Position numbers and translations under genes: made by a program
The notes under the pieces: model-generated
What the model was told of the DNA's origin: nothing
Database searches by the model: none
Seen by the model: the letters and a program-made list of their open reading frames with translations, nothing else
NCBI RefSeq assembly: GCF_056746865.1
Contig: NZ_CM163382.1
Direction: 5' to 3' (one strand)
DNA: 64,000 bases
Part shown: positions 1,561 through 26,237 of the stretch, piece after piece
How the letters are laid out: every line of letters begins with the position of its first letter
Position numbering within the stretch: the stretch's first letter is position 1

Positions 1561-3708
1561 TCAGGGTAAAAGTGAACGAAAAAGTCTCAAAGTTTGAGCA
1601 AAAGAAACTAACTTAATTCGCCAACGCTGCCACCACTTAACACCTGCCGTCGTAGCTTTTTTTTGAGTAGATAATAGATGAATTAATTGTTCAGGGCTGC
1701 ACCAAAGCCCTGACTTCCAATCTATATAACGCGGATATTTTACTAATGTAATATATGCTAATGCACTCAACGTTAATGTACGATGGCGTCTTTCTGATGG
1801 ATGCTTATCTTGTGTTAATCCCCAACCACTATAAAACGGCTGTCCCCATGTCGTAACCTTCACTCCTTGAACTAGTGCCTCAAATCCACTAAGCGAAGTC
1901 ATGGTATGTAACTCATTTATGTGTGGATATAGCGATTCCAGTCTAATATCAGATACTTGGCTATCAACACAGTGTGCTAAACAACGCGCCGAAATAGTAC
2001 CTTTTCGATTGCCAGATACCACATCCGGATGAGGTTTGAACAGAATATGTGCATTCGGTTTAGCTTCACGCACAGCCCACAACAACTGTTCATTGCTGCG
2101 GATAATCGGGCTACCACACAAAATGGATGCATCACCATCAACCTGACCAACCACTAGAATCAACTCACGTCCGTCGTTAGGGGGCTCATATTCTTGTGTA
2201 CTCCCCACATTGTATTTACTGACTCGTGATGATTGTAATTGCGCTAATAATGACTCTGCGCGTGCTTCTTCTTTCGCATCTAAAACGTACGTAGTGAGTA
2301 ACTGCTCAAGCTTACTCGGACGGCGGCTATCAAAATAGATTCCAACGGGGTCAATCGAGAGTGATGAAGGTCGACATAAATTAGACCCCAATCCGTTGGA
2401 GCGGATAAAACCATCTTCAATCCGGATCACTGATTGCAGTTCAGGATAACGGTTTCCCCACACCAACACCTGTTCATCATCTTTTAACTGTGAGGGCACA
2501 GTACGAACAAAACAAAGTTCATCTGCCAAATACGCACAAAATGTGCGTATAAAAGCACGCTTCCACAGAGAAAAACCAACGAGATAAAGACGACGCCAAG
2601 GTTTGGGCTCTACCTGCTGCTGAGCCAAAATCGCTACAACATCTTCTACCTCACAACGTTTTCCCAATATAGGATCTAAATAACGCGGATAACGGATCAA
2701 CGCCGCCGCAACTAAGCGGGGCAATGAAATAGATGAAACGCCTTCGGCTGACATTGCTTCTTCACGGCGTATACAACGTTTACTGTCATGCGTTAACCCC
2801 CACCCAGCATAAAATGGCATACCGAAGCAATATACAGGTTTGCCCAACAGCAACGCTTCAAAGCCAACCTGCGATGAAACTGTGTACACCGCATCCACCA
2901 TACGAATTATTCTATGCGGATGGCAAGGTTCACTCACCACCTCAACATCAGCCAGTCGAGGATCACGCCCCACTAAACGTGCTAACACGCCGCTTTTTTT
3001 GCTAAAGCGTGTATCTGGGTGTGTTCGCAACAATAGACGCGCATTAGGGTGATTACGGCGAGCCTCGACCACCATAGAAACAAAATCAGCTTCGCAAGCA
3101 AGAGCCCCAGAAATTGACAAGTCTCCCGCTACTTGATCCACAAGCAAAATACGCGGTCTTGGATCATCCAGTAAACGTGCTAAGTTTGAATGAGCCGTGA
3201 GGGTGAATAACTCAGGTTGTATATGTGTCGGTAAATCTAAAGAAGGCCCGTCAGTAGCACGGACAGAGCCATTAAATGTATGCTCAGTGCTATTGGTATA
3301 GCAGTTATACTTGGTGATTCCTAAACGCAAAATATCAGAGATCAGATGCTCAGCGCGCGCAAGTAAAGCCGTATCAACAGGTTCAATAATAAGCTGTTCT
3401 AATTGACTCGTCTGATGTGCATCATAATATATCCCCAGAGGGTCAGCAATAAGAGAAACCGCCTTTCCTCCTTTTGCTGGGTGCCCGATATAGCCAATAA
3501 AACCATCTTCAAGTTGCCAATAAGATATTCCTAACTCTTGAGCTTTCTGTTTAATCTGCTTAGTATTAGATTTTTTTCCCCAGCCAACTAAAACGTCATT
3601 TTTAGAAAAAGCCTCGTCTCCTTTCATATAAAGCAATGGGTGACCAAGCATAGGCTCAATATTATTTTTTCTGGCAAGAATCCCTTTCGATCCCGTATAT
3701 AAATACAT
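1561..3708 (-). CDS. kpsC: KpsC-like capsule biosynthesis protein (tandem beta-Kdo transferase domains)
   Basis: 715-aa ORF with an internally duplicated module (LEDGFIGYIG...DPLGIYYDAHQTSQLEQLI and IEDGFIRSNGLG...DPVGIYFDSRRPSKLEQLL), typical of KpsC. It lies next to kpsS. The true start codon is uncertain. Confidence 0.8.
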   Translation of the reverse strand: MYLYTGSKGILARKNNIEPMLGHPLLYMKGDEAFSKNDVLVGWGKKSNTKQIKQKAQELGISYWQLEDGFIGYIGHPAKGGKAVSLIADPLGIYYDAHQTSQLEQLIIEPVDTALLARAEHLISDILRLGITKYNCYTNSTEHTFNGSVRATDGPSLDLPTHIQPELFTLTAHSNLARLLDDPRPRILLVDQVAGDLSISGALACEADFVSMVVEARRNHPNARLLLRTHPDTRFSKKSGVLARLVGRDPRLADVEVVSEPCHPHRIIRMVDAVYTVSSQVGFEALLLGKPVYCFGMPFYAGWGLTHDSKRCIRREEAMSAEGVSSISLPRLVAAALIRYPRYLDPILGKRCEVEDVVAILAQQQVEPKPWRRLYLVGFSLWKRAFIRTFCAYLADELCFVRTVPSQLKDDEQVLVWGNRYPELQSVIRIEDGFIRSNGLGSNLCRPSSLSIDPVGIYFDSRRPSKLEQLLTTYVLDAKEEARAESLLAQLQSSRVSKYNVGSTQEYEPPNDGRELILVVGQVDGDASILCGSPIIRSNEQLLWAVREAKPNAHILFKPHPDVVSGNRKGTISARCLAHCVDSQVSDIRLESLYPHINELHTMTSLSGFEALVQGVKVTTWGQPFYSGWGLTQDKHPSERRHRTLTLSALAYITLVKYPRYIDWKSGLWCSPEQLIHLLSTQKKATTAGVKWWQRWRIKLVSFAQTLRLFRSLLP

Positions 3709-8030: not shown

Positions 8031-9062
8031 TTACTCGACACCTACAATTTTACAAGCATATTTTTTAGCATTGAACGCCAACTCGCTACGTTTATGATCT
8101 GCACTAACAAGTAATGAAAGAGCTTTTATCCATATATGTGGGTCATTCTCCAGCAAGATTCCATTTACATTTTGTTCAATGAAGTCACTATATGGTACAC
8201 AATTACTATATAAACCTACAGCCCCCATTCTGACAAAATCATAAAATTTTACGGGGCCGCGAGCCGAATTAAAGTCAGAGTCAAGTAATGGTGCTAACCC
8301 GATATCCAGATGATGAGTCTTGGTATACGCAAGATAATTTTGCCAACTCATCGGATGCAGTACTGAAACTCTTGGTAGGTCACGATAATATTTATAAATA
8401 TCATGCTCGCCAAAAATTTCAAAGCTGGCACGGGGACATTCTCCCAATACCCCCTCTACGATTTGTCTCAACCAATATTTTTCTTCCCGATGAGAACTTG
8501 AGCCATGATAAGCGATTTTTACTGATCGATGTGTTTCAATGAGTGCCAGTGACGGTTTAGCAGAAACAATCTCCGGGTTAAGATGTGCATATTTATTAGC
8601 CAAATAGGCAGTTGAAACCCAAATGTTATCACAATATTGCGTAATCCATCGATGCTGAGCCGCCGACCTCCTTATTATCTTGGTACGATACTCTTTTGGT
8701 AACGTAGATAGTGCAGTCGGGTCAAACAGGTCGTCATCCATAAAATAAACAATTCGAGAAAACCTGTCGTTATATCTTTCTATGTGCTGTTGCCATTTTG
8801 GGGAGATGAATCTAATGACGACAAGGGCAGATCCTCTAGGAATAAATATATCAGTGGATGCTAATGTGTCGATAAAATGACATTCTGCATCAGGAAACCG
8901 ACTTATAATAGCCGATTCAAAATAGGCTAATGTAGGTGATTTTCCCTCATGTAATATAAACAATCGTTCAAAGTTAATCTCAGAGCTTTGCTGACTTCTA
9001 TAACTCTGTTTATTTAATTTACGATAAGGCTTAAATAGTTTCCTGCGAATTAATTCATCCAT
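8031..9062 (-). CDS. hypothetical capsule region-2 protein, possible glycosyltransferase
   Basis: 343-aa ORF inside the serotype region, overlapping the upstream gene by 13 nt. No motif I can name with confidence. Confidence 0.4.
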   Translation of the reverse strand: MDELIRRKLFKPYRKLNKQSYRSQQSSEINFERLFILHEGKSPTLAYFESAIISRFPDAECHFIDTLASTDIFIPRGSALVVIRFISPKWQQHIERYNDRFSRIVYFMDDDLFDPTALSTLPKEYRTKIIRRSAAQHRWITQYCDNIWVSTAYLANKYAHLNPEIVSAKPSLALIETHRSVKIAYHGSSSHREEKYWLRQIVEGVLGECPRASFEIFGEHDIYKYYRDLPRVSVLHPMSWQNYLAYTKTHHLDIGLAPLLDSDFNSARGPVKFYDFVRMGAVGLYSNCVPYSDFIEQNVNGILLENDPHIWIKALSLLVSADHKRSELAFNAKKYACKIVGVE

Positions 9063-11071
9063 GGCAATACTATATTAGGAGCTCTACTTAAAGAGAAATC
9101 AGGACGTTCATAACTCAAATTTTGGTTGTAGGCTGGATCGTGTTTAAGTGCACATGCCCATCGTTTTTTCATATAGCGCAACTCAGATTTCGCTCGTATC
9201 TGCTGTTGTTTTGATACATCTTTACCACGGGAAATAGACTCATGATGATACAATTCAGCGAAGGGAGTCCAGATTACTCTCCAGCCAGCATCTCGAACTC
9301 TGAGACAATAATCTACGTCATTAAAAGCTATCGGCAAATTCGTTTCATCAAGTCCTCCGAGCGCCAGATATAACTCTTTATGAGTCAATAAACAAGCTGC
9401 AGTCACAGCTGACAGCTCTTGGGCACTAACAGCCCTACGCTGATATCCAGGATCGTTAGCTGACAAACCATTATGAAAATGATCTGCACAACCGCCAGGG
9501 CCGACAGCATCGCCTGCATGCTGAATCAAGCCATTTCCGTAATACAGCTTTGCTCCTACCACACCCACGCCGGGGCGTAATAAATGAGAAACCATTTCAT
9601 CCAGCCAGTCAATACTGATTACCTGAGTATCATTATTCAGCAAACATATCATATCTCCATGTGCGTTTCTCACTGCCAGATTGTTGATGGCTGAATAGTT
9701 AAACGGTTGATCATAAGAAATCACCCTAACGCCATAAACCTGTTCGATATGAGCAAGATAAGCAAGCGTCTCCTCCTCATCGCTCTGATTATCCATCACT
9801 ATGACTTCCATATTGGCATATTGCGTCTTTTGTATCAGGCTTTCGATACAAGGGCGTAAATGAGCAATACCATTTCTAGTAGGGATAATCACTGAAACCA
9901 ATGGCAATTGCGCTGGCAACGGCCAGCGCCAACGACATACACCATGAGGTGCTGCCTCAATGCTCACTCCTGATGGCAGTAAATCTTCTTTATCTTTCAG
10001 CGACTCAAAATCATCCGAAATCAACGCTCTTGCAGGCAAATGCATCATCAATGATGGAATATGGACTATCTGTTTCGGTTCACACATCTTTGCCAACTGT
10101 AGCCACCACTGATGACATGCCGCCGAATCAAAGGGAACACGGCCAGCACCATGTTCACGCCACAAACCACACCAACTAATATAGTTTTGGCTCTGTAGCA
10201 GCGTTTCATTCCAATCAGGTTTAAAGTTGGGAGAGTGACGTTCGCCTCTCTCGTCAAGCAGATCGTGATCACCGTATATCCATAAACAATCAGGATTCTG
10301 GCGTAACTGGTGGGCAACCCAAAATAAGGCGCCGGGCGAAACCACTGCCCCTACAGGCAACACCCACTGCCATTCGCCGCCTGACTGACTGGAGATTTCT
10401 GGATATGCACTATGCTCCTGCAGACTTATATTGCTTGCCGGATAACAGAGTGCCTGAATACTCTCCAGGGTCTTGTTGCGGCTCTGTTCATCCCCAACGC
10501 CAACAAGATGCAAACAGAAACGTGGTAATGTGCCCCAGCGAGCCAGCTGGCGCTTAATCAGCTTGTATTCGGCGGGTTCAAGGGTGTCGAAGTCTGCTAG
10601 CCACTCATCATAGCTATTGAGTGGCTTATCATCGCGAACTCTGCTGACAAGTTGGTAAGCCTGCTGCAAGTCCGTGAGCCACAAATGCCATGAAAGGCCT
10701 AACCTTTTGCGTCTGGACTTCGTTAAGCGTCGGTAAAAAGGCAAAACCCGGCGCAATCGACGCCAGAGACTCTCGGCGCGTGATACACAACAAAGCTGAG
10801 CAATCTCAACATTACACTCAGCGCCCTTAGTACTTGCCAGCAAAGACAAATGACTAGCTCCCGTGGGTAGATAAACCAGCTCCAGCAACGTGCCTCGACG
10901 AGTGACCGGCAACATCTGTTCATGCCATATTCCTTGTCCGCATTGCCAGCGCAGAAGAGTTTCACCTCGAGTTTGAGTCGTCGACACGCGCCCCCGAATC
11001 AGAAGCCAACCAGCATGAAGAGAAAACGAGTCTGGCAATGTCAGAGGCTGCCAATCGCGATAGCTACACAT
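9050..11071 (-). CDS. two-domain GT2-family glycosyltransferase; N-terminal GT domain looks degenerate
   Basis: 673 aa. C-terminal half has VSVIIPTRNG...VMDNQSDEEE...NYSAINN...LLNNDTQV GT2 motifs. Paralogous along its length to the 805-aa protein at 16457..18874 (for example YGDHDLLDERGERHSPNFKPDWN vs YSDEDKINARGERFDPHFKSDWN). Confidence 0.65.
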   Translation of the reverse strand: MCSYRDWQPLTLPDSFSLHAGWLLIRGRVSTTQTRGETLLRWQCGQGIWHEQMLPVTRRGTLLELVYLPTGASHLSLLASTKGAECNVEIAQLCCVSRAESLWRRLRRVLPFYRRLTKSRRKRLGLSWHLWLTDLQQAYQLVSRVRDDKPLNSYDEWLADFDTLEPAEYKLIKRQLARWGTLPRFCLHLVGVGDEQSRNKTLESIQALCYPASNISLQEHSAYPEISSQSGGEWQWVLPVGAVVSPGALFWVAHQLRQNPDCLWIYGDHDLLDERGERHSPNFKPDWNETLLQSQNYISWCGLWREHGAGRVPFDSAACHQWWLQLAKMCEPKQIVHIPSLMMHLPARALISDDFESLKDKEDLLPSGVSIEAAPHGVCRWRWPLPAQLPLVSVIIPTRNGIAHLRPCIESLIQKTQYANMEVIVMDNQSDEEETLAYLAHIEQVYGVRVISYDQPFNYSAINNLAVRNAHGDMICLLNNDTQVISIDWLDEMVSHLLRPGVGVVGAKLYYGNGLIQHAGDAVGPGGCADHFHNGLSANDPGYQRRAVSAQELSAVTAACLLTHKELYLALGGLDETNLPIAFNDVDYCLRVRDAGWRVIWTPFAELYHHESISRGKDVSKQQQIRAKSELRYMKKRWACALKHDPAYNQNLSYERPDFSLSRAPNIVLPWMN

Positions 11072-11174
11072 AATATAACTTACAGTCCAAAGTAACAGAT
11101 GGGGGATACAGATCCTTATTAGCAGGCCTGTAGATAAGAGCAGAAATAAACACCAAAGCGCTTGCTCAATATAT

Positions 11175-12143
11175 TCAAACCATCCATTTCTTCATTTTTT
11201 TTTTGAACCAAGAACCAGTAGGAATAGGTTCAACTGCTGATAACTCAGTCAACTTCACACTTAATCGTTCCATTTCAGCTTTTACTTGTCCTGAGAATGC
11301 GGCAGCGAGAAGGCACTCTTCATCATTACGATCATGTGCCTTGAAATAATCTTTATGCTTCACTCGATTAGCAGTAGCAGCACTACCACGCAGATGCTTG
11401 CCCAACAAGAATTCCTCAAGTGATTTAACTGCATAGTGATTTACCCTGACACCGCTCCAAATCACTTCAGCACTAACTCCTTTACCATGCCTCGGGTGCA
11501 GAATCAAATCACGACCTAACACATCAATATATCGACCATAACGCAAATCAGCATAATGCGGATTATGAAAGCGGTTAACTCGTTCTGGTTTGACCACACT
11601 TTTGAAGTTATGATGAACGTTAAAGGGTTGCGGGGCACGATAGGTAAAACGTTCAATAACCAACCCCTCTTCAGCAAACAGTTCACCACTAGAACCAAAA
11701 TTTGCCCAATTCAATGCAATAGCGCTGACACTCTCATCCTGAAACTTTTCAGAAAAAAAATCTGACAATTTGGTATCCGATTCAAGTGGCAATAAAAATT
11801 CATCAGCATCTATAAATGCAAGCAGGTCTATGTCTCTGGGACAGCTACGTAAAATATGTTCATATGCAGGTAATTGTGGCTTTTGATTCACCAAAATCGG
11901 TTGATCGAACATCTTCACAATACCTAAGCGAGCGAGGGACAATAGCAACTCTCGACTACCATCACGACTACCATTATCTGCAATAATAAACCCATCAACA
12001 CCTAATACTCGATGGTAAGCAATCCATTCAAGTAAACTTGAATACTCATCCTTGATAATAGCGGCTATATAGAGTTTCAAATTATCATCCAGCAAAAATG
12101 TATCAATGCCGATACTATCGGCATTGATACTCAATTTTATCAT
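11175..12143 (-). CDS. glycosyltransferase (GT2/GT92-like fold)
   Basis: 322 aa with LLEWIAYHRVLGVDGFIIADNGSRDGS. Paralog of the N-terminal domain of the 409-aa protein at 15216..16445. Confidence 0.55.
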   Translation of the reverse strand: MIKLSINADSIGIDTFLLDDNLKLYIAAIIKDEYSSLLEWIAYHRVLGVDGFIIADNGSRDGSRELLLSLARLGIVKMFDQPILVNQKPQLPAYEHILRSCPRDIDLLAFIDADEFLLPLESDTKLSDFFSEKFQDESVSAIALNWANFGSSGELFAEEGLVIERFTYRAPQPFNVHHNFKSVVKPERVNRFHNPHYADLRYGRYIDVLGRDLILHPRHGKGVSAEVIWSGVRVNHYAVKSLEEFLLGKHLRGSAATANRVKHKDYFKAHDRNDEECLLAAAFSGQVKAEMERLSVKLTELSAVEPIPTGSWFKKKMKKWMV

Positions 12144-12586
12144 CAGGCAGGAGAAAAAAATAACCCGTCCAACCAGGTGATCACCCCATCTGATTCCAGC
12201 CCAATAATTATTTTGGTAGAAAATGGAATACTGATATCAAATCCGCACCGAAGTTTTTGATGTTTTTCAGGTGGTTGTTTTAGTATAGCTGAAATAACAT
12301 CAGGCCGCTTTGTATTGAAAGGAAAACTGTATGTCATATGATCAATTTTAACAGCAACATGGGAATCTGCTTCCCCTTCAGCCACTAACCACCCCCGAAG
12401 TACAATCCGGCCATTGACGATCTTTAGTGGTTGTTGTTCTGATGGCGAATCAATATTCCAATATAATTGACCGCCAGACTTGACGAGTGGCGATTTTGTG
12501 AGGGTATAAATAACAGCCATACGATTCCTTCTATTTGAAATATTGCTCAAATAACTCAGACTATCTCCAGATTGCCTTTCAAGCAA
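12143..12586 (-). CDS. hypothetical protein; stand-alone ~90-aa module shared with two neighbouring proteins
   Basis: 147-aa ORF. Shares IVLRGW...RPDV...CGF motifs with the C-terminus of the 409-aa protein and the N-terminus of the 426-aa protein. Confidence 0.4.
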   Translation of the reverse strand: MLERQSGDSLSYLSNISNRRNRMAVIYTLTKSPLVKSGGQLYWNIDSPSEQQPLKIVNGRIVLRGWLVAEGEADSHVAVKIDHMTYSFPFNTKRPDVISAILKQPPEKHQKLRCGFDISIPFSTKIIIGLESDGVITWLDGLFFSPA

Positions 12587-12713: not shown

Positions 12714-13880
12714 TTAATCAGCCCCAAAAAGATCTCTGGTATAAACCTTTTCGGCTACATCGACTAATTCAGCAGCCATGCGATTACAGAGAATAACATC
12801 GCTCAGCGCTTTAAACTCAGCCAGTTCCCGAATCACTCGGGAATTGAAGAATGTATCTTCATGAATAGTCGGTTCAAAGACCACTACCTCAATACCCTTG
12901 GCCTTAATACGCTTCATGACTCCCTGTATCGCAGAAGAGCGGAAATTATCTGAGCCAGCCTTCATCACCAAACGATGGATGCCCACCACCTTAGGTTTAC
13001 GACGCAATACGCTATCAGCAATAAAGTCTTTGCGAGTGCAATTAGCATCGACAATGGCGCGGATCAGATTGTTGGGTACCTTGTTGTAGTTGGCCAGCAA
13101 CTGCTTGGTGTCTTTGGGCAGGCAATAGCCACCATAACCAAATGAGGGGTTGTTATAATGGCTACCGATACGCGGATCCAAGCCAACCCCTTCGATAATC
13201 TGACGACTGTCCAAGTCATGCGACTGAGCATAGGTGTCCAACTCATTGAAATAGGCCACCCGCATTGCCAGATACGTATTAGCAAACAACTTGATGGCCT
13301 CCGCCTCGGTGCTGCCCGTTAGCAGTACCGGAATGTTCTGCTTGATCGCCCCTTCTTGCAACAATTCAGCAAATCGTTTGGCCCGCTCACTACGCTCACC
13401 CACCACAATACGGGAAGGGTATAGGTTGTCATACAGCGCCTTGCCCTCACGCAAGAACTCGGGAGAGAAGATCAGATTATCGGTGCCTAACTCACTACGC
13501 AGCCGCTCGGTAAAGCCTACCGGAATGGTAGACTTGATCACCATCACTGCATTAGGGTTGATACTGATCACATCGCGAATCACCCACTCGACTGAGTCGG
13601 TGTTAAAGTAGTTGGTCTCGGGATCATAATCGGTGGGGGTAGCAATAATCACAAATTCGGCCGCCTCATACGCCTCGAATTTATTCAGCGTCGCCTTAAG
13701 GTTCAGATGATTGTTGGCCAGATAGGCCTCCAGCTCTTTATCTGCAATGGGGGATTGACGGCGATTAATCAGTTCGACTTTCTCTGGTAATATATCCAGT
13801 GCAATTACCTGATGATGTTGAGCTAATAGCACTGCAATAGAAAGACCTACATAACCAGTTCCAGCTATAGCTATTTTCAT
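12714..13880 (-). CDS. ugd: UDP-glucose 6-dehydrogenase
   Basis: [24 protein letters not shown]-binding N-terminus and overall UDP-glucose/GDP-mannose dehydrogenase family features. Start placed at the internal Met (ATG at 13878-13880); the track start is at 13910. Confidence 0.85.
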
Positions 13881-13928
13881 GTTATAAAATACCTGCTCAA
13901 TTAAGTTCACATATATTTTTTACAAGTA

Positions 13929-15209
13929 TTATGAGGGTGCAGATTCAGTATTATATAATTTACTCATTTTTTCATGATAAAATAAAAGCGAAGGGCAAGA
14001 ATTATACTCAAAATTATTAATCTTTTTCTTGTATATTTTTCTAACAATTTCAGAAGTAAAACAGAAATTGTTTTTAGGTGGCTTCACAATAAATCTAGAA
14101 GCGACCTGAATAATTATTTTTGATGGCTTTTCATGAGCCACCACATCAAGATCCACACTCGCACCAGAAAATACATGGATTACTCTTTTATATTTATTTA
14201 CAAAATATGGAAGCATATTTATAGAATAAGAATCACCAAAAAAAACCACGACACTATCATCTATTTTGCGATTATTTTCAAATACTCTCACCCATCCTCT
14301 ATTATTAACCCCGTTATCATAAACAATATAATTATCAATACCAGAGAAATCAGCCTTCAATATATCCTGCGAAATCGGAGGGGTTGTCTTAATTCCTAAA
14401 TCGCCATAACTCCTTTTAATGTAAAAAGGGAAAATAGAATTATCGAGGACCGTGTTGTTTTTATTTAAGATATTATCTATATATTTAGCCACCTGCAATG
14501 CAGCAAAATCAGACCAGTGCGTATCAACTTTAGAATATGAGCTATCACCGATATCTCTTAATATATCTAAAGGATAAACTATATCAGTACAAATGGAGAG
14601 TAACTGTTCAACTGGTGTCTCTGGCGATTTTTTAAACGGATAGTATGATGACAATACATTCTCTTTGGCTGGAGCCAAACAAAAAACATATTCAATCCGT
14701 TGATCATTCATATATTTCCGAATAAAATCTAGATAGTTCTTCCAAACAGAAATATCATCATTTGTAATTTTTTTAATTCCAATAAACTGCTCTTTACTCT
14801 GATTGGTATCATGATCCAAGAATAAATACCCATTGTGTCCAAAAAGCACTTTTTGAGGAGGAGTTATATCTACTCTCGCTATTACATAATCAACATTATT
14901 AATAGTTGTTCCAATACTAAACGACTCCAAACTAGTAATAGCATAACTAAAACCACACATAGTATCACTAACATTTCCATTGAAATGTCTTACTACGTCT
15001 AATCTGGGTGTATTATAGTCAAGAATTAATTTCTCTCCATTCTTAACTATATATATATTATTCTGACAACCTTTATAGAGTAGCCATCCCGATAAATGAA
15101 TCGCAGAGCAATTTGACTTAAAATAACTACATGTCCGAGGACTATCAATTGAAAACTTGAGCCCGGTAATATCTGGTCTTATAACAGATAGTTTGATATC
15201 ATATTTCAT
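13929..15209 (-). CDS. putative SGNH/AlgJ-like polysaccharide-modifying acyltransferase with N-terminal shared module
   Basis: 426 aa. N-terminus carries the HLSGW...RLDV...CGF module. The body has DTHW and FFGDSYS motifs reminiscent of SGNH/AlgJ-type O-acyltransferases. Assignment by motif only. Confidence 0.45.
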   Translation of the reverse strand: MKYDIKLSVIRPDITGLKFSIDSPRTCSYFKSNCSAIHLSGWLLYKGCQNNIYIVKNGEKLILDYNTPRLDVVRHFNGNVSDTMCGFSYAITSLESFSIGTTINNVDYVIARVDITPPQKVLFGHNGYLFLDHDTNQSKEQFIGIKKITNDDISVWKNYLDFIRKYMNDQRIEYVFCLAPAKENVLSSYYPFKKSPETPVEQLLSICTDIVYPLDILRDIGDSSYSKVDTHWSDFAALQVAKYIDNILNKNNTVLDNSIFPFYIKRSYGDLGIKTTPPISQDILKADFSGIDNYIVYDNGVNNRGWVRVFENNRKIDDSVVVFFGDSYSINMLPYFVNKYKRVIHVFSGASVDLDVVAHEKPSKIIIQVASRFIVKPPKNNFCFTSEIVRKIYKKKINNFEYNSCPSLLFYHEKMSKLYNTESAPS

Positions 15210-15215
15210 TAAATT

Positions 15216-16445
15216 TTAAACCAATTTTGAAACTAATTCTTCATTGAGTGGAAATTCTAAACTAACTAATCCAGCCTGATTTAAAGTATATATCTGAACG
15301 CTTGAGATAAGTTGTGTAGGAAGCGACAACGAACATATAAACCCGCACCCAATTCCATTACCAATCCCAGCTTTTTCTACATCAGGCCGATCATAAAATG
15401 ATAGTGAGTCTGGGCGTATTAAAAAAGAGTTATTTATAACCATTACAATACTACTACATGGTTTTTTATCATTATCTACTGCCCAACCTTTTAGAACTAT
15501 AGCACGTCCATCTTTTTTAATTGTATCAATAAATCCAACCCCCATACTTTTAGTAGTCTTATAAAGTGGTTCACTTCTGCTTTCTATGAGCGGCTGATAT
15601 CCACAATCAAGCAATTTCTCATTAATGGTTGCGATTTGACATTTTACTTTTCTCAGAAACCATAATGGAATATGTTGCTCAATATTATTCAAATCATGAT
15701 TTTTAAAAAATTGCAGATTTCTACCGAGACTATTTTTTAGTGTTGTAGCTCTACCTCGAGCGACCTTTTTATTCAAGAATTCAGCCTTTGACTTAATTAC
15801 ATAATGATTAAGTCTGATAACTGACCAGTCAATCACCTCACTTATTCCATCATAACTATGATGTTCTTCTCCACTTGGCATAACAAATTTCTTATCTGAA
15901 TTAATAATAAAAGCATGGGGTGTTGGTCCTGCTTTGATAACATCAGAAACACGAACTATTGACTTATAATGCCTATTAACAGGATGCAGATCAGCAGCTC
16001 TCTTAACGAATCGTTCTATAACAAGACCGTCATCAGGTAAAATTGAATGAGATGAGCCATATACAGCCCAGTTGAGTGATATTGCACCAATCGCCTGATC
16101 ATTTAATAGCGGCATCAGTTTGTTTAAACCATCTTCATAGTCATTTGGTGAAATAAATTCATCTGCATCAATAAATGCAACCCATCTATCTTTATCAAGC
16201 ATTGACAATATTTTATTGTACGCCCCCAATTGTGGGGGAATACCATCTTGTGTCGGATAGTCAATCCTTTTGATAATATTCGCTTTATCTAGAAAATATA
16301 AAAGCTCACTACTTCCATCACTACTAATATTGTCGGCAATATATATATCATTAATGCCAAGAGCCATATGGTAAGCAATCCACTCAACAATGAATGGGTA
16401 TTCATTTTTTAAAATTGCACCTATTGAAAGCATCGCTGTTATCAC
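15216..16445 (-). CDS. glycosyltransferase (GT2/GT92-like) fused to C-terminal shared module
   Basis: 409 aa with VEWIAYHMALGINDIYIADNISSDGS at the N-terminus and IVLKGW...RPDV...CGF at the C-terminus. Confidence 0.55.
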   Translation of the reverse strand: MITAMLSIGAILKNEYPFIVEWIAYHMALGINDIYIADNISSDGSSELLYFLDKANIIKRIDYPTQDGIPPQLGAYNKILSMLDKDRWVAFIDADEFISPNDYEDGLNKLMPLLNDQAIGAISLNWAVYGSSHSILPDDGLVIERFVKRAADLHPVNRHYKSIVRVSDVIKAGPTPHAFIINSDKKFVMPSGEEHHSYDGISEVIDWSVIRLNHYVIKSKAEFLNKKVARGRATTLKNSLGRNLQFFKNHDLNNIEQHIPLWFLRKVKCQIATINEKLLDCGYQPLIESRSEPLYKTTKSMGVGFIDTIKKDGRAIVLKGWAVDNDKKPCSSIVMVINNSFLIRPDSLSFYDRPDVEKAGIGNGIGCGFICSLSLPTQLISSVQIYTLNQAGLVSLEFPLNEELVSKLV

Positions 16446-16456
16446 TCTACTTAAAA

Positions 16457-18874
16457 TTAAATGGAGAAGTCTTCTCTATCTTTAGATAGGTTTGGACTGT
16501 AGAAGGGATCGAGTTCGAGATGTTTACCCCATTTGCTTTTCATAAAGTTCACTTCCCTGGCAAATCTGGCTATTTTCTCCGGGGAATCTTCGGCACCTCG
16601 ACTAATTGATTCATAGTGGTAAAGCTCGGCATAAGGCGTCCAGAGATTACGGTACCCCGCTTCGCGTACTTTCAGACAGAAGTCCACATCATTAAAAGCA
16701 ACATGCAAATTCTCTTCATCCAACCCGGCAACTTCCTCATAAATATTTTTGCGAATAAGCAGGCAAGCAGCCGTGACGGCCGAGAGAGTTTGTGTCAACA
16801 ACAAACGGCTGAAATAACCCGGATGATGGCGAGGGTACTGTTTATGAGAGTGTCCCGCTACACCACCAATACCGAGAATAACTCCGCCATGTTGTAAAGT
16901 ATCATTACTGTAATAGAGCTTGGCCCCGACACAACCAATCTCTGGTCGCATGCAGTGACTCACCATCTCGGTCAGCCAATCCGGGTTGATTACCTCGACA
17001 TCATTATTGACCAAGCCGATAATGGCCCCCTTGGCGTGACGAACGCCAAAGTTGTTGATGGCCGAGTAGTTAAAGGGGTGGTCATAGCGCAATACTCTGA
17101 CCCGGCTGTCTTCCTGCTGGATCTGGGCAAAGAAATCGAGAGTCTCCTGCTCCACGCTGCCATTATCGAGAATCAGGATCTCGAAATGGGTATAGGTACT
17201 GCGATCGATGATGCTACGCACCGCAGTTTCGGTTAGAGCACGACGATCCCGAGTAGGAATAAGCAAACTAACCAGTGGGGCTGGTTCTGAAATAGGGTAA
17301 CGTACCCGATAGGTGTTGGGAACCAACCCCGCCTCAACCGTAACCTCAGGTTGCTGCTTAGAAAAATAGTCGCGTAGCGCTTTGATGCCAGCCTCCGTGG
17401 TGTAGCTCTTCTCGCCAGAAGCCAAAGCTGTAGAGCCCTCAATGGTACGCCAGTGGTAAAGCACACGGGGAATGTGAACTATCTGCTCTGCAGCTACATG
17501 AGGCAGACAACGCAGCAGCAGATCCTGATCCTGACTTCCTTCTACTCCCAAACGGAATCCCCCAATCTGTTGCAGCAGAGAGCGACGATAGACCCCGAGA
17601 TGCGAGACATAGTTTTGCGAAAAGAATAAATCTGGATTCCAATCGCTCTTGAAATGAGGATCAAAACGCTCACCGCGGGCATTAATTTTATCTTCGTCAC
17701 TGTAAAGGATCTGGGTATGAGGCTGCTCACAAATAGCCTGAGCCATAAATAGCATAGCATGCTCTGGCAACACATCATCATGATCCAACAGAGCTACGAA
17801 ATCCCCTTTTGCAATTTCGAGAGCACTGTTGGAAGCAGCCGAAATATGACCATTGTGCTTTCGGTAGACAACTTTGATTCGGCTATCCTTGGCCTCGTAT
17901 TCGCGCAGTACGCGTTGCACATGTTCTTTTGGCGAACGATCATCGGCAATACAGAGTTCCCAATGGGGATAGCTTTGAGCCAGGACAGAATCCAGACAGG
18001 CACGCAAGTAGATCTCCGCTGGATTATAAACAGGAATCACAATAGATATAACTGGAGGGTGAGTCATACTGGCAAGCATCAGACTCACCTCTTTGTTGCC
18101 AGGCAACGAAGGTAATTCCACCGTTTCTATCCATTCCTCATAACCGACAGAAAACGGGGTAACGCTGAACGTTTCGTTATAGAATGCCTGCAGGCGCTCT
18201 ATTGACATATCGCCATTGTCCATCAATATGGATTTTTTGATTTTTTCTAGCGGCATGTCACGATAGCTTTGGTGTTCTTTTTGAATGCGAGCCAATAGTG
18301 CAGACTCAACTACTTTCACATCAACAGCTGCTATTTCAAACTGATTAATTGCAAATGTTGCTGCCTGTTCTAATGGATCAAATCGTAATGCAACAAGAGG
18401 CGATTCCAGATAGAACAAACGACTGACGCTGACCGCTCGTTTATATGGCAACGTTACTGTTTCAAACTCATTGAACCCTTTACCTGTATCCAAATATAAC
18501 TTAGCTAATCCTTGCTTTGGTTGGCAATTAATAGAGATATTAAATTGATACCATCCCTTGCTAATATTTGAGAGCTGCTCCAAATCAATAATGAAAAATG
18601 GATCATTTCCCTCTGCAACCCAACTTTGTGAATTATCTATATCTATCGAGAGCTGATTTGTTGCCAGATAGGGCAGCACAACTGTATTTTGCATTTTACT
18701 CACTGCAGGAGAAACGTCCCATGCTTCGCATGGTTTCCTACCGAGTAACATCCCATAACGCTTAAAATGTTCTCTTGCTGACAACCCGGTCTGTTTCACA
18801 TCCAAATAGTTATGCAGATACCAATGTTCATCAAAGTGAGCTAGCAACTCGTCTTGGTGATTTTTAACCATCAC
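16457..18874 (-). CDS. dual-domain GT2 glycosyltransferase, candidate capsule polymerase
   Basis: 805 aa with two GT2 cores (ISIVIPVYNP...LLDHDDVL and VSLLIPTRDR...ILDNGSVEQE...NYSAINN...LVNNDVEV). N-terminal HWYLHNYLDVKQTGLSAREHFKRYG motif. Strong RBS (AGGGAG) before the start. Confidence 0.7.
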   Translation of the reverse strand: MMVKNHQDELLAHFDEHWYLHNYLDVKQTGLSAREHFKRYGMLLGRKPCEAWDVSPAVSKMQNTVVLPYLATNQLSIDIDNSQSWVAEGNDPFFIIDLEQLSNISKGWYQFNISINCQPKQGLAKLYLDTGKGFNEFETVTLPYKRAVSVSRLFYLESPLVALRFDPLEQAATFAINQFEIAAVDVKVVESALLARIQKEHQSYRDMPLEKIKKSILMDNGDMSIERLQAFYNETFSVTPFSVGYEEWIETVELPSLPGNKEVSLMLASMTHPPVISIVIPVYNPAEIYLRACLDSVLAQSYPHWELCIADDRSPKEHVQRVLREYEAKDSRIKVVYRKHNGHISAASNSALEIAKGDFVALLDHDDVLPEHAMLFMAQAICEQPHTQILYSDEDKINARGERFDPHFKSDWNPDLFFSQNYVSHLGVYRRSLLQQIGGFRLGVEGSQDQDLLLRCLPHVAAEQIVHIPRVLYHWRTIEGSTALASGEKSYTTEAGIKALRDYFSKQQPEVTVEAGLVPNTYRVRYPISEPAPLVSLLIPTRDRRALTETAVRSIIDRSTYTHFEILILDNGSVEQETLDFFAQIQQEDSRVRVLRYDHPFNYSAINNFGVRHAKGAIIGLVNNDVEVINPDWLTEMVSHCMRPEIGCVGAKLYYSNDTLQHGGVILGIGGVAGHSHKQYPRHHPGYFSRLLLTQTLSAVTAACLLIRKNIYEEVAGLDEENLHVAFNDVDFCLKVREAGYRNLWTPYAELYHYESISRGAEDSPEKIARFAREVNFMKSKWGKHLELDPFYSPNLSKDREDFSI

Positions 18875-21746: not shown

Positions 21747-23006
21747 TCAATCCTGGTGCTCACGCAAAGTTGCCAGCCCCATAATAATAAGACCATAGAA
21801 CAAGCAAAGTAATACACCCACAGTCGCAAGATTATAGAATCGCCGTGGATATTCGGCATCTTCCGCTAAAGTTGGTTGGGTAATAACCAATAGGTGCTTA
21901 AGTTTACGATATGCCTCAACCCGCGTCTGCTCTAAGCTGATAAGGCCAGTTTTGTAGAGATCCGCTGCCAAGGTTGCCTGCGTTTGCACATCCATGTAAC
22001 CGGCGGTGATTTCATTCATGGCATCGTTATCTTGACCAGTCAGCTTAGCACGCTCCTGTTCAAGCTGCTTGGTTAGGGCGTCAACTCGGCTCTGTAATGA
22101 GACTACGGCCGGTGCGGTTTCCTTCATATAGCTGCGCAGTTGTTTTAGCTCCGCCTGTTGACGCACCAGCTCTCCTTCAATCTGGCTGACCACTCCTAAG
22201 CGTGCGCTGCTGGTAGATTCAGGGCTGAGAAGTTGGTGGCTATTCTGAAATGCTAATACTTTAGCTTTTTCATCCTGTAAGCGTTGATATGCTCTATTTA
22301 CTTCTTTTTCAACAAAGGCCAATTGTTCGAGCGCAACCTGATGACCTAATTTGTTAATAAAACGCTCCGATTCTTTGAGCATTAACTCAACAACTCGCTG
22401 ACCGTATTGGGGATCAAATGTCTGCAACTCAACGGTAAGTACTCCTGATAATTCATCAAGATGTAACGTCAAATGTTTGCGGTAATAATCAAGAAAATCC
22501 TCCCTACTGACTCCCTTATGCAACCGCGAGAAATAATCTGCACTATCACTCTGGAAATGTGCTTTAAGTGCAAGTTCTTTGTCCAACTTGGCCAGCATAT
22601 CCCATGACTTCATATAATCCTGAACGAGTAATATATCCTGATGATTACTACCACCGATCCCTAACATTGATAACGCATCAGGCAACATTTTAACTTGATC
22701 GGCTTGTTTAATCATTAATTCAGCCCGGCTCACATAACGATCGGAAGCAATGAAGCCAAAATAGAGCACTGCGATAGAAAAGCAGATAACTACCCAAAGA
22801 AAACTGCCTAGCTGTAAACTTTTCTTCCACGAGCGGTGTACAATTTGATATCCTCTCGAATCAATCAAAAATAGTTTTGGATTATTGCTCAGTTTTCTTA
22901 ACTTTCGCGCAAGGCGAGATATTGAGGATGAAGAATTCGGAGATGTCATAATCAGTTGCTGCTCAAAGTGACTGGTAAATTTTGATGGCATCATCAATAT
23001 TATCAA
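21747..23006 (-). CDS. kpsE: KpsE-like capsule export inner-membrane protein (Wzz/PCP-3 type)
   Basis: 419-aa track ORF with one N-terminal transmembrane segment, a long periplasmic coiled region and a C-terminal TM (GVLLCLFYGLIIMGLATL). Track start overlaps kpsT by 44 nt; a start at the internal Met (22949) is more likely. Confidence 0.7.
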   Translation of the reverse strand: MIILMMPSKFTSHFEQQLIMTSPNSSSSISRLARKLRKLSNNPKLFLIDSRGYQIVHRSWKKSLQLGSFLWVVICFSIAVLYFGFIASDRYVSRAELMIKQADQVKMLPDALSMLGIGGSNHQDILLVQDYMKSWDMLAKLDKELALKAHFQSDSADYFSRLHKGVSREDFLDYYRKHLTLHLDELSGVLTVELQTFDPQYGQRVVELMLKESERFINKLGHQVALEQLAFVEKEVNRAYQRLQDEKAKVLAFQNSHQLLSPESTSSARLGVVSQIEGELVRQQAELKQLRSYMKETAPAVVSLQSRVDALTKQLEQERAKLTGQDNDAMNEITAGYMDVQTQATLAADLYKTGLISLEQTRVEAYRKLKHLLVITQPTLAEDAEYPRRFYNLATVGVLLCLFYGLIIMGLATLREHQD

Positions 23007-23613
23007 AAACTTCTAATTTACCATCACGTAACAAGATGCCCATATCGCATTGTTGTCGTAGATTTTTCATATCATGTGAAACCATAATCAAACTAGCTGT
23101 TTCTCGCTTTTTGTTAAATACATCAATACATTTTTGTTTAAAACGTGCATCACCTACTGAGGTAATTTCATCGGTAAGATATATATCAAAATCAAAAGCC
23201 ATACTAACAGCAAAAGAAAATTTTGATTTCATGCCGCTAGAGTATGTTTTAATAGGCAACTCATAATGTTGTCCAATTTCAGAAAACTCTTTAACCCACT
23301 CTTCTACGGTGCTTGTATCGCGTACACCATGAATGCGGCAAACAAATCGCGTGTTTTCACGACCAGTCATACTACCTTGAAATCCCCCACCTAGTGCTAG
23401 AGGCCAAGATACTCGGCAGAGACGAGTTACTTTCCCCCTGTTAGGCGTATCCATCCCTCCTAACAAACGTAACAAAGTAGATTTTCCTGCTCCATTGATA
23501 CCTAGAATACCTATATTACGGTCCCTTGGTAGCTCAATATTTACATTCCTCAGGACATAATTTCGTCCAAATTTAGTCGGATAATATTTTGATACATTAT
23601 CAAGAATAATCAT
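22963..23613 (-). CDS. kpsT: capsule ABC transporter ATP-binding protein
   Basis: 216 aa, Walker A GINGAGKSTLL, ABC signature region. Adjacent to the ABC-2 permease. Confidence 0.85.
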   Translation of the reverse strand: MIILDNVSKYYPTKFGRNYVLRNVNIELPRDRNIGILGINGAGKSTLLRLLGGMDTPNRGKVTRLCRVSWPLALGGGFQGSMTGRENTRFVCRIHGVRDTSTVEEWVKEFSEIGQHYELPIKTYSSGMKSKFSFAVSMAFDFDIYLTDEITSVGDARFKQKCIDVFNKKRETASLIMVSHDMKNLRQQCDMGILLRDGKLEVFDNIDDAIKIYQSL

Positions 23614-23624
23614 TTTTCTTAACG

Positions 23625-24425
23625 CTAACTAGCAATCAATTGGCGATGCCGTAATCGGTAACAACTCATAGCAAAAGTGAGCAATAATAAGGTGACAACC
23701 GACAGATACGCCCAACTTACATCAGGACTACGATAACCAGATATCCATGCCCTTCGGATTAGTTCTACAGCATGCACAAGTGGATTCCATAAAAACCAAT
23801 GCTGATATTGAGGGGGAATAGTAGCAAGAGGAAACATAACACAAGAGATAAACATCAAAGGCATCATTAACAAGCTAAGAAATTTATCTGCCTCTTTCGC
23901 TAAGTTACAAATAACACAAAATACAATACCAAGAGAAAAAGAAAACAGCATCAGAAGAGAATAACCAAGGATCACTTGCAATGGATCCGCAGGTATTGCA
24001 TCAAAGCCAAACCACAATAATCCTAGTACTAGGATGATACCGACAATCATGCCCACCATTGTTTCTAGCATAAAACGTGCTATAAAAGTTGCAAAAGGAG
24101 TCACTTGTCTATAACAAAAAAGTCCCATATTAGCATTGACAGCAGATTTCAACTGAGTCACAACTTTATTGAAAAACATGAAAGGTAAATAACCAGCAGT
24201 AATAAAAACCTGGGCTGGGACACCACCAAAGCCACTTTGGCTTCTCATCCCAAATACTACACTGAACAGGCTAATCATTAATAATGGGTCAAGTAATGCC
24301 CAAGCATAACCTAGTCGGTAATTACCAAATCTTGTTTTTAGCTCACGAATTAATAAGCCAAATACTACATCACGTAATACTTGCAAAGAAGTGCGTGGAG
24401 TTTGACTAATAATGGGTTTGTCCAT
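23625..24425 (-). CDS. kpsM: capsule ABC transporter permease (ABC-2 family)
   Basis: 266 aa, six predicted TM helices, ABC-2 type. Immediately upstream of kpsT. Confidence 0.8.
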   Translation of the reverse strand: MDKPIISQTPRTSLQVLRDVVFGLLIRELKTRFGNYRLGYAWALLDPLLMISLFSVVFGMRSQSGFGGVPAQVFITAGYLPFMFFNKVVTQLKSAVNANMGLFCYRQVTPFATFIARFMLETMVGMIVGIILVLGLLWFGFDAIPADPLQVILGYSLLMLFSFSLGIVFCVICNLAKEADKFLSLLMMPLMFISCVMFPLATIPPQYQHWFLWNPLVHAVELIRRAWISGYRSPDVSWAYLSVVTLLLLTFAMSCYRLRHRQLIAS

Positions 24426-24491
24426 TAATACTTACCCAAATAATCGGCTCATTATAGCAACGAGCCTCCGATTAAAATTTAAAACACTCAA

Positions 24492-26237
24492 TCATTTAAT
24501 AGCAACGTTAGCAGCTACAGCGATTTGATAAATAATTTGTGTGATATCTTTAAATGATTGCATGGTTTTGCTATCAACCTGAGGTAGAACCAATATCTGA
24601 TCCCCCGGTTGTACTTTACCTTGCCCTTTAAATTCTACAAGACCATTTGCATGTACAATAGCAATTCGCTTGTCGTTAGCTCGCTCAGTAAAACCTCCGG
24701 CCCATGCAACATAATCATCCAAATTAGCATCGGCATTATATACTACTGCTTGTGGCATCAACACTTCACCACCCACTTGAATAAGATCAGTCTTATTTGG
24801 AATAACTATTTGATCGCCTTGTTCTAATTGGATATTGGCAATAACACCTTTATCTGCAACTACTACTTTACCAAGCGGTTGAACTTTACGAGCCTTTTCA
24901 ACAAACTGCATCACTAACTCTGCTTCTTTAGCACGTATATTCGCCTCACCATCAGATCGCGCGGGTGTGGTAAATACACTACGTTCCAAGCGGTTTAGAG
25001 ATTCATCCAGCATCTCTTTTTGTCTTGCAGCCACACTCTTTCGTATCAGATAAATTGATTGATAATCCGCAAGCTCTGGGTCAATAGGGATATAGTTCAA
25101 TAAATCATGCAATTTAGTTTGCTTACGAACCGTGAAATATGACGGTCCCATATAACTGCCTGATACTTGTATATCATATACTTGTGCATGCATGTCATCA
25201 TTAAAAAGTACTTTGTCACCGTCTTTAAGTTGAAGACGTGTAAAATCTTTATACGGCAAGTAGACGGAAAACGGGCCGCTTTCCCTGTCGCCAATCACAC
25301 CGACATGACTGACTTTTGCGAGAGGAAGTGCATAATTCACCAATTCAGAGCCTAATGCATTGCGCTGGGTAAGCTCAAATCGGAATGGGTTTCGAACCTT
25401 TCCCGCAACATTGATCATTGGACCTTGTTGCTCAACTAAAATCACATCTTGATCTTTTAATGCCAGCTTCGGGAGTTTCCCATACCGTATGAAATCATAA
25501 AGATCAATTTGCTGTATTACTCTATTTTGTCGTAACACCTTAATTTTTCGATAACTTCCACGGTCAGAATCTATTCCACCGGCACGTTTTAAAAAATACA
25601 ATATACTATCAGAAGATTGTCCTGCATACTGCCCAGGACGAATTACAGGCCCCGTAACGAATACACTTACAGGGGTTGCAGTCAAAAGATTTACGTAAGT
25701 ATTTACATTATTGGTAAATACATCACCGATCTTACTTGCCACCAACTGATTAACTTGGCTTGCAGGAACATTTTTTACATTTATTGGACCTACATCAGGT
25801 ATGAAAATATTTCCTTGATTATCTACCGTAACCACATTAGAGAAATTGACCGCTCCCCAAATCCAGATATTTAACTTATCCCCAGGAGCAATCAAATAAT
25901 TATCGCTTAAGCCGTCACTCCTTTCTGTTTCATAGCCTCCGGCAAATAAATTAGCACCATACGGAGGAGGTAAGCCTGCTTCAGATTGCGGCAGTAATTT
26001 TCGTACATCTGACTCTCCTGGAAGCAACATCCCATTACGATTCTGTTGTGTGAAGCTTCCTGTTGTGGAGGTTGTATTAGGCTGTCCAGTGATGTCTGCT
26101 AGCATTTTCCGAGACTCTCCTGTCGAGGCAGCAAGATCATAATCTAAATGTGAACCATTAGATTGATTTTGCTCTATTGCGGCGAATGCTGATGCAGAAA
26201 TAAGAAAGAGAAGAGTGCTAAGTTGCGAAATTTTCAT
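24492..26237 (-). CDS. kpsD: KpsD-like periplasmic/outer-membrane capsule export protein
   Basis: 581 aa with signal peptide (MKISQLSTLLFLISASAFA). Central region resembles KpsD (GDKLNIWIWGA...GNIFIPDVGPINV...VFVTGPVIRPGQY...RGSY). Confidence 0.75.
   Translation of the reverse strand: MKISQLSTLLFLISASAFAAIEQNQSNGSHLDYDLAASTGESRKMLADITGQPNTTSTTGSFTQQNRNGMLLPGESDVRKLLPQSEAGLPPPYGANLFAGGYETERSDGLSDNYLIAPGDKLNIWIWGAVNFSNVVTVDNQGNIFIPDVGPINVKNVPASQVNQLVASKIGDVFTNNVNTYVNLLTATPVSVFVTGPVIRPGQYAGQSSDSILYFLKRAGGIDSDRGSYRKIKVLRQNRVIQQIDLYDFIRYGKLPKLALKDQDVILVEQQGPMINVAGKVRNPFRFELTQRNALGSELVNYALPLAKVSHVGVIGDRESGPFSVYLPYKDFTRLQLKDGDKVLFNDDMHAQVYDIQVSGSYMGPSYFTVRKQTKLHDLLNYIPIDPELADYQSIYLIRKSVAARQKEMLDESLNRLERSVFTTPARSDGEANIRAKEAELVMQFVEKARKVQPLGKVVVADKGVIANIQLEQGDQIVIPNKTDLIQVGGEVLMPQAVVYNADANLDDYVAWAGGFTERANDKRIAIVHANGLVEFKGQGKVQPGDQILVLPQVDSKTMQSFKDITQIIYQIAVAANVAIK

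Follow-up and report, generated by a model that had tools for sequence, protein, structure and literature searches.

A candidate cytoplasmic AlgX/AlgJ/PatB1-type O-acyltransferase in the TBA_6 group 3 capsule locus of Escherichia coli

The AlgX/AlgJ/PatB1 branch of SGNH-like O-acetyltransferases has been studied as part of the cell envelope. AlgJ, AlgX and WssI (PF16822), which act in alginate and cellulose O-acetylation, are periplasmic, carry a signal peptide or transmembrane (TM) anchor and receive acetyl from the membrane-bound O-acyltransferase (MBOAT) AlgI or WssH. Bacillus cereus PatB1 (DHHW family, PF14286), an O-acetyltransferase of the secondary cell wall polysaccharide, is extracytoplasmic and has the MBOAT PatA1 as its partner. 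All characterised members of the AlgX/DHHW branch are in fact extracytoplasmic and MBOAT-fed (PMC9487903, PMC4148444). Here we analyse a gene for a 426-aa protein in a stretch of 64,000 nucleotides of E. coli DNA (NCBI RefSeq assembly GCF_056746865.1, contig NZ_CM163382.1; this whole stretch is called the window below and all positions without another locus name refer to it). The protein has the SGNH-like alpha/beta/alpha fold in common with AlgJ, AlgX and WssI, but unlike them, and unlike PatB1, it lacks both export signal and MBOAT partner and is encoded in a capsule locus of the ABC-transporter type. Its identity to AlgJ, AlgX and WssI is only about 12-15%. It carries its beta-sandwich at the N-terminus, with no sequence relationship to the carbohydrate-binding module of AlgX; PatB1 differs further in its motifs (DHHW and KDS versus DTHW and GDS) and in its cap and extension elements.

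A functional analogue is found in the Vi antigen system of Salmonella Typhi, where TviD, a cytoplasmic SGNH O-acetyltransferase of an ABC-dependent capsule, binds its glycosyltransferase (GT) (PMC8760489). TviD is also encoded beside the polymerising GT, and it shares with some homologs of our protein (Phyllobacterium) a C-terminal TPR region, that is, the same SGNH plus TPR domain logic. The architecture of the two enzymes is nevertheless different: TviD is unpermuted and follows the canonical order, with Block I at the N-terminal side and DxxH around residue 250, and its nucleophile is a Cys-His pair (PMC8760489), whereas our protein is permuted and has a predicted Ser nucleophile. No sequence relationship between them was detected. 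Like the enzyme that we propose, the capsule O-acetyltransferases CsaC and OatC (CssE) of Neisseria meningitidis serogroups A and C work in the cytoplasm, have a Ser-His-Asp triad and serve ABC-transporter-dependent capsules. They have the classical alpha/beta hydrolase fold and use acetyl-CoA via a covalent acetyl-enzyme. Both are absent from the results of sequence and fold searches with our protein. They have been filed under the SGNH family (PMC8760489).

Cytoplasmic capsule O-acetyltransferases of other folds are well known, which makes the surprise a moderate one, and RefSeq already has the family label of our protein. In the literature that we searched, no cytoplasmic, MBOAT-free enzyme of AlgX/AlgJ/PatB1 type is described. 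Our reading, to which we give a probability of about 0.6, is that the 426-aa protein would be a cytoplasmic, MBOAT-independent O-acyltransferase, most probably an O-acetyltransferase, decorating the nascent TBA_6 capsule before its export by KpsMT/KpsED.

Family membership and predicted active site

The gene and its parts are as follows.

13929..15209, minus strand: AlgX/AlgJ/PatB1-type SGNH-like protein, 426 aa, RefSeq WP_001556231.1, candidate cytoplasmic capsule O-acyltransferase (open reading frame and homology)
14862..15209, minus strand: N-terminal beta-sandwich, aa 1-116, with conserved GW, RxDV and CGF motifs
14661..14672, minus strand: PAKE motif with K182 and E183 (alignment to AlgJ)
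14514..14525, minus strand: DTHW motif (Block V), aa 229-232, with predicted catalytic Asp229 and His231 (translation; alignment)
14226..14237, minus strand: GDSY motif (Block I), aa 325-328, with Ser327 as predicted nucleophile (translation; alignment)
14010..14858, minus strand: circularly permuted SGNH-like catalytic domain, aa about 118-400

The open reading frame (ORF) is intact from ATG to TAA by ORF calling (13929-15209, minus strand), and RefSeq names its product 'alginate O-acetyltransferase AlgX-related protein' in some genomes and 'hypothetical protein' elsewhere. With 31% G+C, and 25% at third codon positions, it lies inside a low-GC block of a window that is otherwise ~52% G+C. 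The gene is rare, being present in 7 of 5426 complete E. coli genomes: six carry it at near-identity (99.9%), and the seventh is 99.1% identical across a 3.8-kb segment containing it. The ratio of nonsynonymous to synonymous substitution rates (dN/dS) against the 78%-identical Aeromonas caviae ortholog is 0.19, so the gene is functional and under purifying selection.

Membership in the AlgX family becomes clear at the level of the family rather than of the single sequence. Pfam ALGX (PF16822) matches the protein alone with 16.1 bits (E=0.009), over aa 121-251 only, and a profile of 9 sequences reaches AlgJ in the PDB at only E=0.039; significance was reached only with a 146-sequence profile. 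The family profile matches AlgJ (4o8v, E=2.8e-8) and B. cereus PatB1 (5v8e, E=8.9e-8). Among full-length members, 79 of 96 match PF16822 individually (E<=1e-3), some of them above the cutoff (e.g. L009, 61 bits). The profile search returned 6,819 representatives at 50% identity with E<=1e-3, whose weaker matches include canonical MBOAT-paired relatives, and 344 with E<=1e-30.

Conservation was read from an alignment of 146 members that are 21-41% identical to our protein, save five close relatives at 55-79%. No variation is seen at K182, E183 and H231, and D229, T230, W232, G325, S327 and R372 are conserved in at least 90% of sequences; D326 of 'GDS' varies, and the family has FGxSSS as its consensus. 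The sequence-only reading of this DNA had started from the DTHW and GDSY motifs, and translation confirms that both are present. Two motifs of four residues are weak evidence when taken alone; conservation of their columns over the 146 homologs, at about 25-30% identity, is what makes them credible. The DTHW block aligns on 'TDTHW' of AlgJ and 'TDHHW' of PatB1, and the GDS block on the KDS motif of PatB1, which carries the nucleophile (PMC9487903). K182 is aligned with the signature lysine of AlgJ (K134 in PpAlgJ, K137 in PaAlgJ), mutation of which abolishes acetylation (PMC4148444). Taken together, K182, D229, H231 and S327 correspond to AlgJ K134, D190, H192 and S288 (AlgJ residues from PMC4148444), so that residue conservation yields a predicted Ser-His-Asp triad together with the signature Lys.

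The order of the blocks is also that of the branch. Block V (DTHW, 229-232) lies N-terminal to Block I (GDS, 325-327), conserved HSAG-like and TNxRF-like blocks come after GDS in the family consensus, and the resulting permuted order H-S-G-N is the definition of the AlgX/DHHW branch (PMC9487903). An AlphaFold2 model built from a deep alignment is confident (predicted local distance difference test score, pLDDT, 94.6; predicted template modelling score, pTM, 0.86), while a first model from a shallow alignment, with pLDDT 69, was discarded. In the confident model an alpha/beta/alpha domain comes after the N-terminal beta-sandwich (aa 1-116). Its only significant fold matches in the PDB, with 12-16% identity in the structural alignments, were these.

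PatB1: 20.0, 3e-10
DHHW protein 4nzk: 19.3, 3e-9
AlgJ: 18.2, 3e-9
AlgX: 13.8, 2e-6

Judged by its sequence profile and modelled fold, the protein is a real but divergent member of the AlgX/AlgJ/PatB1 branch.

Neither Pfam nor the PDB sequence families include the N-terminal beta-sandwich, which we regard as a putative glycan-binding or complex-assembly module. A second copy stands on its own close by.

12143..12520, minus strand: 125-aa ORF consisting only of a beta-sandwich like the N-terminus of the AlgX-like protein, RefSeq 'hypothetical protein' (N-domain hidden Markov model, HMM, E=6.7e-30)

The N-domain HMM scores this ORF higher than the AlgX-like protein itself, and BLASTP relates the ORF to the N-terminus of that protein at E=2e-4. 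In A. caviae the corresponding place is taken by a 126-aa ORF with 59% identity to it. The 125-aa ORF has no Pfam or PDB sequence match. We speculate that the 125-aa protein might be an adaptor for an acylation or assembly complex. A tblastn match at 12173-12529 had raised the idea that this region is a remnant of a second AlgX-like paralog known from Aeromonas; we rejected it in favour of a conserved standalone N-domain gene. The idea that the C-terminus of the GT encoded upstream shares the same beta-sandwich was also rejected (BLASTP E=0.096, no match with the N-domain HMM).

Cellular location, neighbours and distribution

The N-terminus of the AlgX-like protein has neither signal peptide nor TM anchor (Kyte-Doolittle maximum, KD(15), of 0.79 in the first 70 aa), and the AlphaFold2 model opens with a beta-strand at residue 2. 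A hydrophobic N-terminus, with KD of 1.8 reached, is present in 1 of the 146 clade members. The protein thus does not show the extracytoplasmic location of the AlgX family. Gene fusions point the same way: an N-terminal Glyco_tranf_2_4/GT92 glycosyltransferase is fused to the homologs P0087, P0130 and P0148, GT2 is fused to P0116, and a C-terminal Stf0 sulfotransferase to P0133. These partners are cytoplasmic enzymes that depend on nucleotide sugars or 3'-phosphoadenosine-5'-phosphosulfate (PAPS). P0087 is encoded among GT2s and rmlA/C in a locus of kpsD-M-T-E type, and its fused GT is of the same type as the upstream neighbour of our gene. Periplasm and cytoplasm had both been left open by the sequence-only reading, which had called the protein SGNH-type; profile and fold matches to AlgJ and PatB1 bear out the family, and the missing export signal narrows the predicted location to the cytoplasm.

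The genes next to the AlgX-like gene are these.

15216..16445, minus strand: GT409, 409-aa Glyco_tranf_2_4/GT92-like glycosyltransferase directly upstream of the AlgX-like gene (Pfam)
16457..18874, minus strand: GT805, 805-aa dual-GT2 glycosyltransferase (two GT2 domains in Pfam)
12714..13910, minus strand: ugd, UDP-glucose 6-dehydrogenase (NCBIfam PRK15057, 705 bits)

Six nucleotides lie between the stop of GT409 and the ATG of the AlgX-like gene, and 18 nt between the stop of the latter and the start of ugd; with gaps this small the three genes are tightly packed in one operon. Adjacency to a GT, as in TviD systems, is found here in the 6-nt gap to GT409, in the GT fusions in equivalent loci and in the kpsMTED context, and GT409 is the probable functional partner of the AlgX-like protein.

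A Pfam scan of the kps-locus ORFs of at least 150 aa revealed no MBOAT, AT3 or LbH acyltransferase. The same question was put to 29 loci, by ORF calling, BLAST against the window proteins and TM counting. Clade loci were counted where the AlgX-like gene was recovered (E<=1e-20), which gave 19 loci within L002-L025 less L021 and L023. In all 19 the AlgX-like protein has no TM segment and no polytopic membrane gene lies beside its gene. The neighbours in the clade are ugd, rml genes, GT805-like GTs and KpsM/T/E/D-like export genes; GT805-like genes adjoin AlgX-like genes in L003, L006, L007 and many other loci, and ugd is adjacent also in Aeromonas and P. viridiflava loci. The four most distant relatives (L027-L030), in contrast, each have a TM anchor and a polytopic gene of 465-521 aa directly upstream, and Pfam confirms all four of these genes as MBOAT (E 1e-27 to 1e-36). 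These four serve as an internal positive control: the method detects the canonical pairing, and the clade of our protein is without it.

Some members of the clade differ in domain composition. In alphaproteobacteria (L009-L012, L014, L015, L019, L020 and L022; Phyllobacterium, Microvirga, Rhizobiales) the AlgX-like domain comes without the N-terminal beta-sandwich and is followed by a C-terminal TPR region, to a total of about 595 aa (~9930-11770 per locus; ALGX 61 bits, above the cutoff), and this AlgX-TPR gene lies downstream of one for a ~950-aa GT805-like protein. A two-domain homolog of 31% identity is encoded in Rhizobium sp. RAS22 (L002, 1-11260), directly downstream of a KpsM-like permease and of genes resembling those of phage tails or gene transfer agents (GTA), namely tape measure, NlpC/P60 and GpJ-like genes.

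Within E. coli, the AlgX-like gene behaves as part of a serotype cassette. The TBA_2 locus (CP023142.1) is collinear with the TBA_6 window and several of its proteins are identical, and it differs in the slot between GT805 and ugd, which holds a GT2 and an NAD-dependent epimerase in TBA_2 (L031 10226-12537) and GT409 and the AlgX-like gene in TBA_6 (13929-16445). As the two-gene slot is swapped as a unit, the GT409 and AlgX-like pair is a serotype-distinguishing cassette, and its exchange probably defines the difference between serotypes TBA_2 and TBA_6. On plasmid pEC81-2 (CP088132.1, TBA_7; L032 13230-14538) region 2 is 99.1% identical, and the AlgX-like gene has an exact 28-bp tandem duplication of nt 598-625, which shifts the frame and brings a stop near residue 200, before DTHW. 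It has one other substitution only, and the neighbouring coding sequences are still annotated at full length. To judge by its sequence, this is a natural null allele with intact neighbours, resembling the acetyltransferase frameshift that distinguishes K2a from K2ab (PMC13171606).

The cassette also occurs beyond E. coli. Region 2 of A. caviae (L003, JBKARL010000053.1) is syntenic, with protein identities of 74% for GT805, 83% for GT409, 78% for the AlgX-like protein and 88% for ugd, and it contains a second AlgX-like paralog (L003:12495-13904, 469 aa, 38% identical to our protein) that E. coli does not have. The AlgX-like gene is about 31% G+C in both species, pointing to horizontal spread of a low-GC module. 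Among the kTYPr group 3B K-types, AlgX-domain proteins are recorded for K129_7 (435 aa, beside an 806-aa dual GT2) and K152_5 (a 160-aa fragment beside a TPR protein) (PMC13171606, supplementary table 3), so that the module recurs over group 3 capsule types.

Proposed function and alternatives

We propose that the protein acts as a soluble cytoplasmic enzyme with a circularly permuted SGNH-like fold and a Lys-Asp-His-Ser network of K182, D229, H231 and S327. In a ping-pong reaction, Ser327, activated by His231 and Asp229, would be acylated by a cytosolic thioester, with acetyl-CoA as the simplest donor, and the acyl-enzyme would then hand the group to a sugar hydroxyl of the growing polymer at the cytoplasmic face, before export by KpsMT. 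The MBOAT shuttle would be unneeded because donor, enzyme and acceptor are all proposed to be cytoplasmic. The mechanism is plausible in view of TviD and of the AlgX-family enzyme WssI, which uses acetyl-CoA directly in vitro (PMC10302187). The enzyme would act with the adjacent GT2_4/GT92-like GT, and the tight gene packing together with the Rosetta-stone fusions suggests a complex with a GT of this type; the probable task of the N-terminal beta-sandwich is to bind glycan or to dock the enzyme to the assembly complex. What we infer in this scheme is that the acyl group is acetyl, that acetyl-CoA donates it, which residue accepts it and that enzyme and GT interact physically. The sequence-only interpretation as an SGNH-type acyltransferase is supported by our analysis, and the acyl substituent itself remains its prediction.

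Several points weigh against this proposal. In single-sequence scans the protein falls below the ALGX gathering score (16.1 vs 26.5 bits) and has no NCBIfam match. Transferases and hydrolases are not separable by sequence, and the characterised relatives are all extracytoplasmic, MBOAT-fed and esterase-active in vitro. The Rhizobium homolog has a phage-tail/GTA-like setting, where polysaccharide esterases are common and an esterase role would also make sense. Finally, the TBA_6 polymer is structurally uncharacterised (PMC10433991).

It is conceivable that the mechanism is right and the acyl group is another one: propionyl, succinyl or malonyl derived from CoA, or an aminoacyl group, as in the D-alanyl transferase DltD, which belongs to the SGNH superfamily (PMC9487903). 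Nothing in the sequence specifies the acyl group and the clade is divergent from the acetyl-specific enzymes, with which it shares 12-16% identity in structural alignments. All characterised enzymes of the AlgX/DHHW branch transfer acetyl, however (PMC9487903), and the scanned locus ORFs include no carrier protein, ligase or CoA-transferase gene for an unusual donor, so we give this variant a small chance. We rate slightly lower the idea that the protein is a hydrolase, an esterase or deacylase that trims or edits acyl groups or cleaves an ester-linked assembly intermediate. SGNH enzymes are mostly hydrolases, AlgJ, AlgX, WssI and PatB1 have esterase activity in vitro (PMC9487903, PMC10302187, PMC4148444), and the 31%-identical Rhizobium homolog beside phage-tail/GTA-like genes fits as well. 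What disfavours a hydrolase is that no acyltransferase that would create its substrate was found among the scanned locus ORFs and that the closest structural relatives are transferases, not SGNH esterases; the fusions with GTs and a sulfotransferase also fit a modifying enzyme at work during synthesis.

Acylation of a unique site instead of the repeating polymer is improbable in our view. The site could be the proposed rhamnose-containing group 3 linker, or the non-reducing terminus in a chain-length control together with the 909-aa coiled-coil methyltransferase of the locus. For group 3 loci the assembly of a complex linker has been proposed (PMC10433991), group 3 clusters have in common a large methyltransferase whose coiled coil varies (PMC13171606), and the GT fused in P0087 is most similar to GT322 of the window (42% identity). 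Against this, the AlgX-like gene lies outside the conserved group 3 core, TBA_2 and most other group 3 loci do without it, and pEC81-2 shows it to be dispensable; it behaves like a serotype-specific decoration gene. A non-catalytic scaffold or a decaying gene is very improbable: the sub-threshold Pfam score, the presence in 7/5426 complete genomes and the frameshift in one carrier could be read in this way, but the catalytic K, D, H and S are conserved over the clade, dN/dS is 0.19 and the model is confident and compact.

A cytoplasmic O-acyltransferase for the TBA_6 capsule is thus the reading that we prefer, and it can be extended, more tentatively and with somewhat less than an even chance, to the clade as a whole. 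A large clade of the AlgX/PatB1 fold, uncharacterised as far as we could find, would have moved to the cytoplasm, lost the MBOAT relay, come to take acetyl from acetyl-CoA and become coupled or fused to GT2_4/GT92 GTs, with a beta-sandwich domain of its own. Work on the fold has so far dealt only with its place at the periplasmic end of an MBOAT relay; here it is found without the relay in cytoplasmic glycan assembly lines. If this extension is true, the MBOAT-SGNH pairing is not obligatory in the AlgX/PatB1 branch, hundreds of 'hypothetical' genes in capsule and O-antigen loci gain a handle for annotation, and a general, overlooked acylation route exists for capsules and O-antigens exported by ABC transporters. 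O-acetylation of capsules alters antigenicity and recognition by phages and antibodies and is relevant to vaccines. For several E. coli K serotypes such modifications are the only difference, and in many cases the gene behind them is unknown (PMC13171606). The AlgX-like gene is a concrete candidate for the decoration of group 3 K-type TBA_6/TBA_7, with the pEC81-2 null allele available for comparison.

The surrounding capsule locus

The sequence-only reading spoke of a capsule, and the locus agrees: the window contains an E. coli group 3 (subgroup 3A) kps locus, with the AlgX-like gene in region 2, between kpsD-M-T-E and kpsC. The group 3 layout is seen in kpsD-M-T-E, a region 2 with rmlBDAC, kpsC(-S), the lack of kpsF/U and the chromosomal position near gsp; the locus adjoins gspM/L. 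An identical locus in CP038791.1 was typed 'TBA_6', subgroup 3A, by Hong et al. 2023 (PMC10433991).

24492-26237, minus strand: kpsD (Pfam; RefSeq annotation of identical locus)
23625-24425, minus strand: kpsM (Pfam; RefSeq annotation of identical locus)
22963-23613, minus strand: kpsT (Pfam; RefSeq annotation of identical locus)
21747 to about 22949, minus strand: kpsE (Pfam; RefSeq annotation of identical locus)
21747..26237, minus strand: group 3 region 1 export genes kpsD/M/T/E together
1561..3708, minus strand: kpsC (Capsule_synth), region 3 (Pfam PF05159, 254 bits)

On the minus strand the order is kpsD, kpsM, kpsT, kpsE, the 909-aa methyltransferase protein, GT805, GT409, the AlgX-like gene, ugd and the 125-aa ORF, followed by a GT92-like GT, a 673-aa GT2, a 343-aa protein, rmlBDAC and kpsC. 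The kpsMTED export genes imply that the polymer is made in the cytoplasm and then exported by the ABC transporter; ugd predicts glucuronic acid in it, and GT805 is its likely backbone polymerase.

According to Hong et al. 2023, TBA_6 does not have the conserved three-GT block upstream of rml (PMC10433991). Nonetheless, both the window (8031-12143, minus strand) and CP038791.1 have the GT92-like GT, the 673-aa GT2 and the 343-aa protein there, the last (WP_021526990.1) being identical to its TBA_2 counterpart. Either these genes are not wckC/I-wsaE-wckE, or the assignment of the accession to the type is inconsistent. We also considered the locus as K54/K96 (Rha and GlcA, with Thr/Ser amide) and rejected this, since it is TBA_6 and not K96, and the threonine genes of K54 are presumed to be located outside kps (PMC13171606).

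An ops-like GGCGGTAG is found at 27570-27577 (minus strand), upstream of kpsD and in the same orientation, and would fit RfaH-dependent transcription of the operon as a whole; with 2 copies in the window versus 1.1 expected by chance, the octamer is weak evidence alone. In the 909-aa protein (18877-21606, minus strand) Methyltransf_24 is limited to residues 65-181, and the other ~730 residues have no domain assignment. Variable-length coiled coils in group 3 methyltransferases are mentioned in the kTYPr paper (PMC13171606). By analogy, the protein recalls chain-length terminators of WbdD type, which hints at terminal capping of group 3 capsules.

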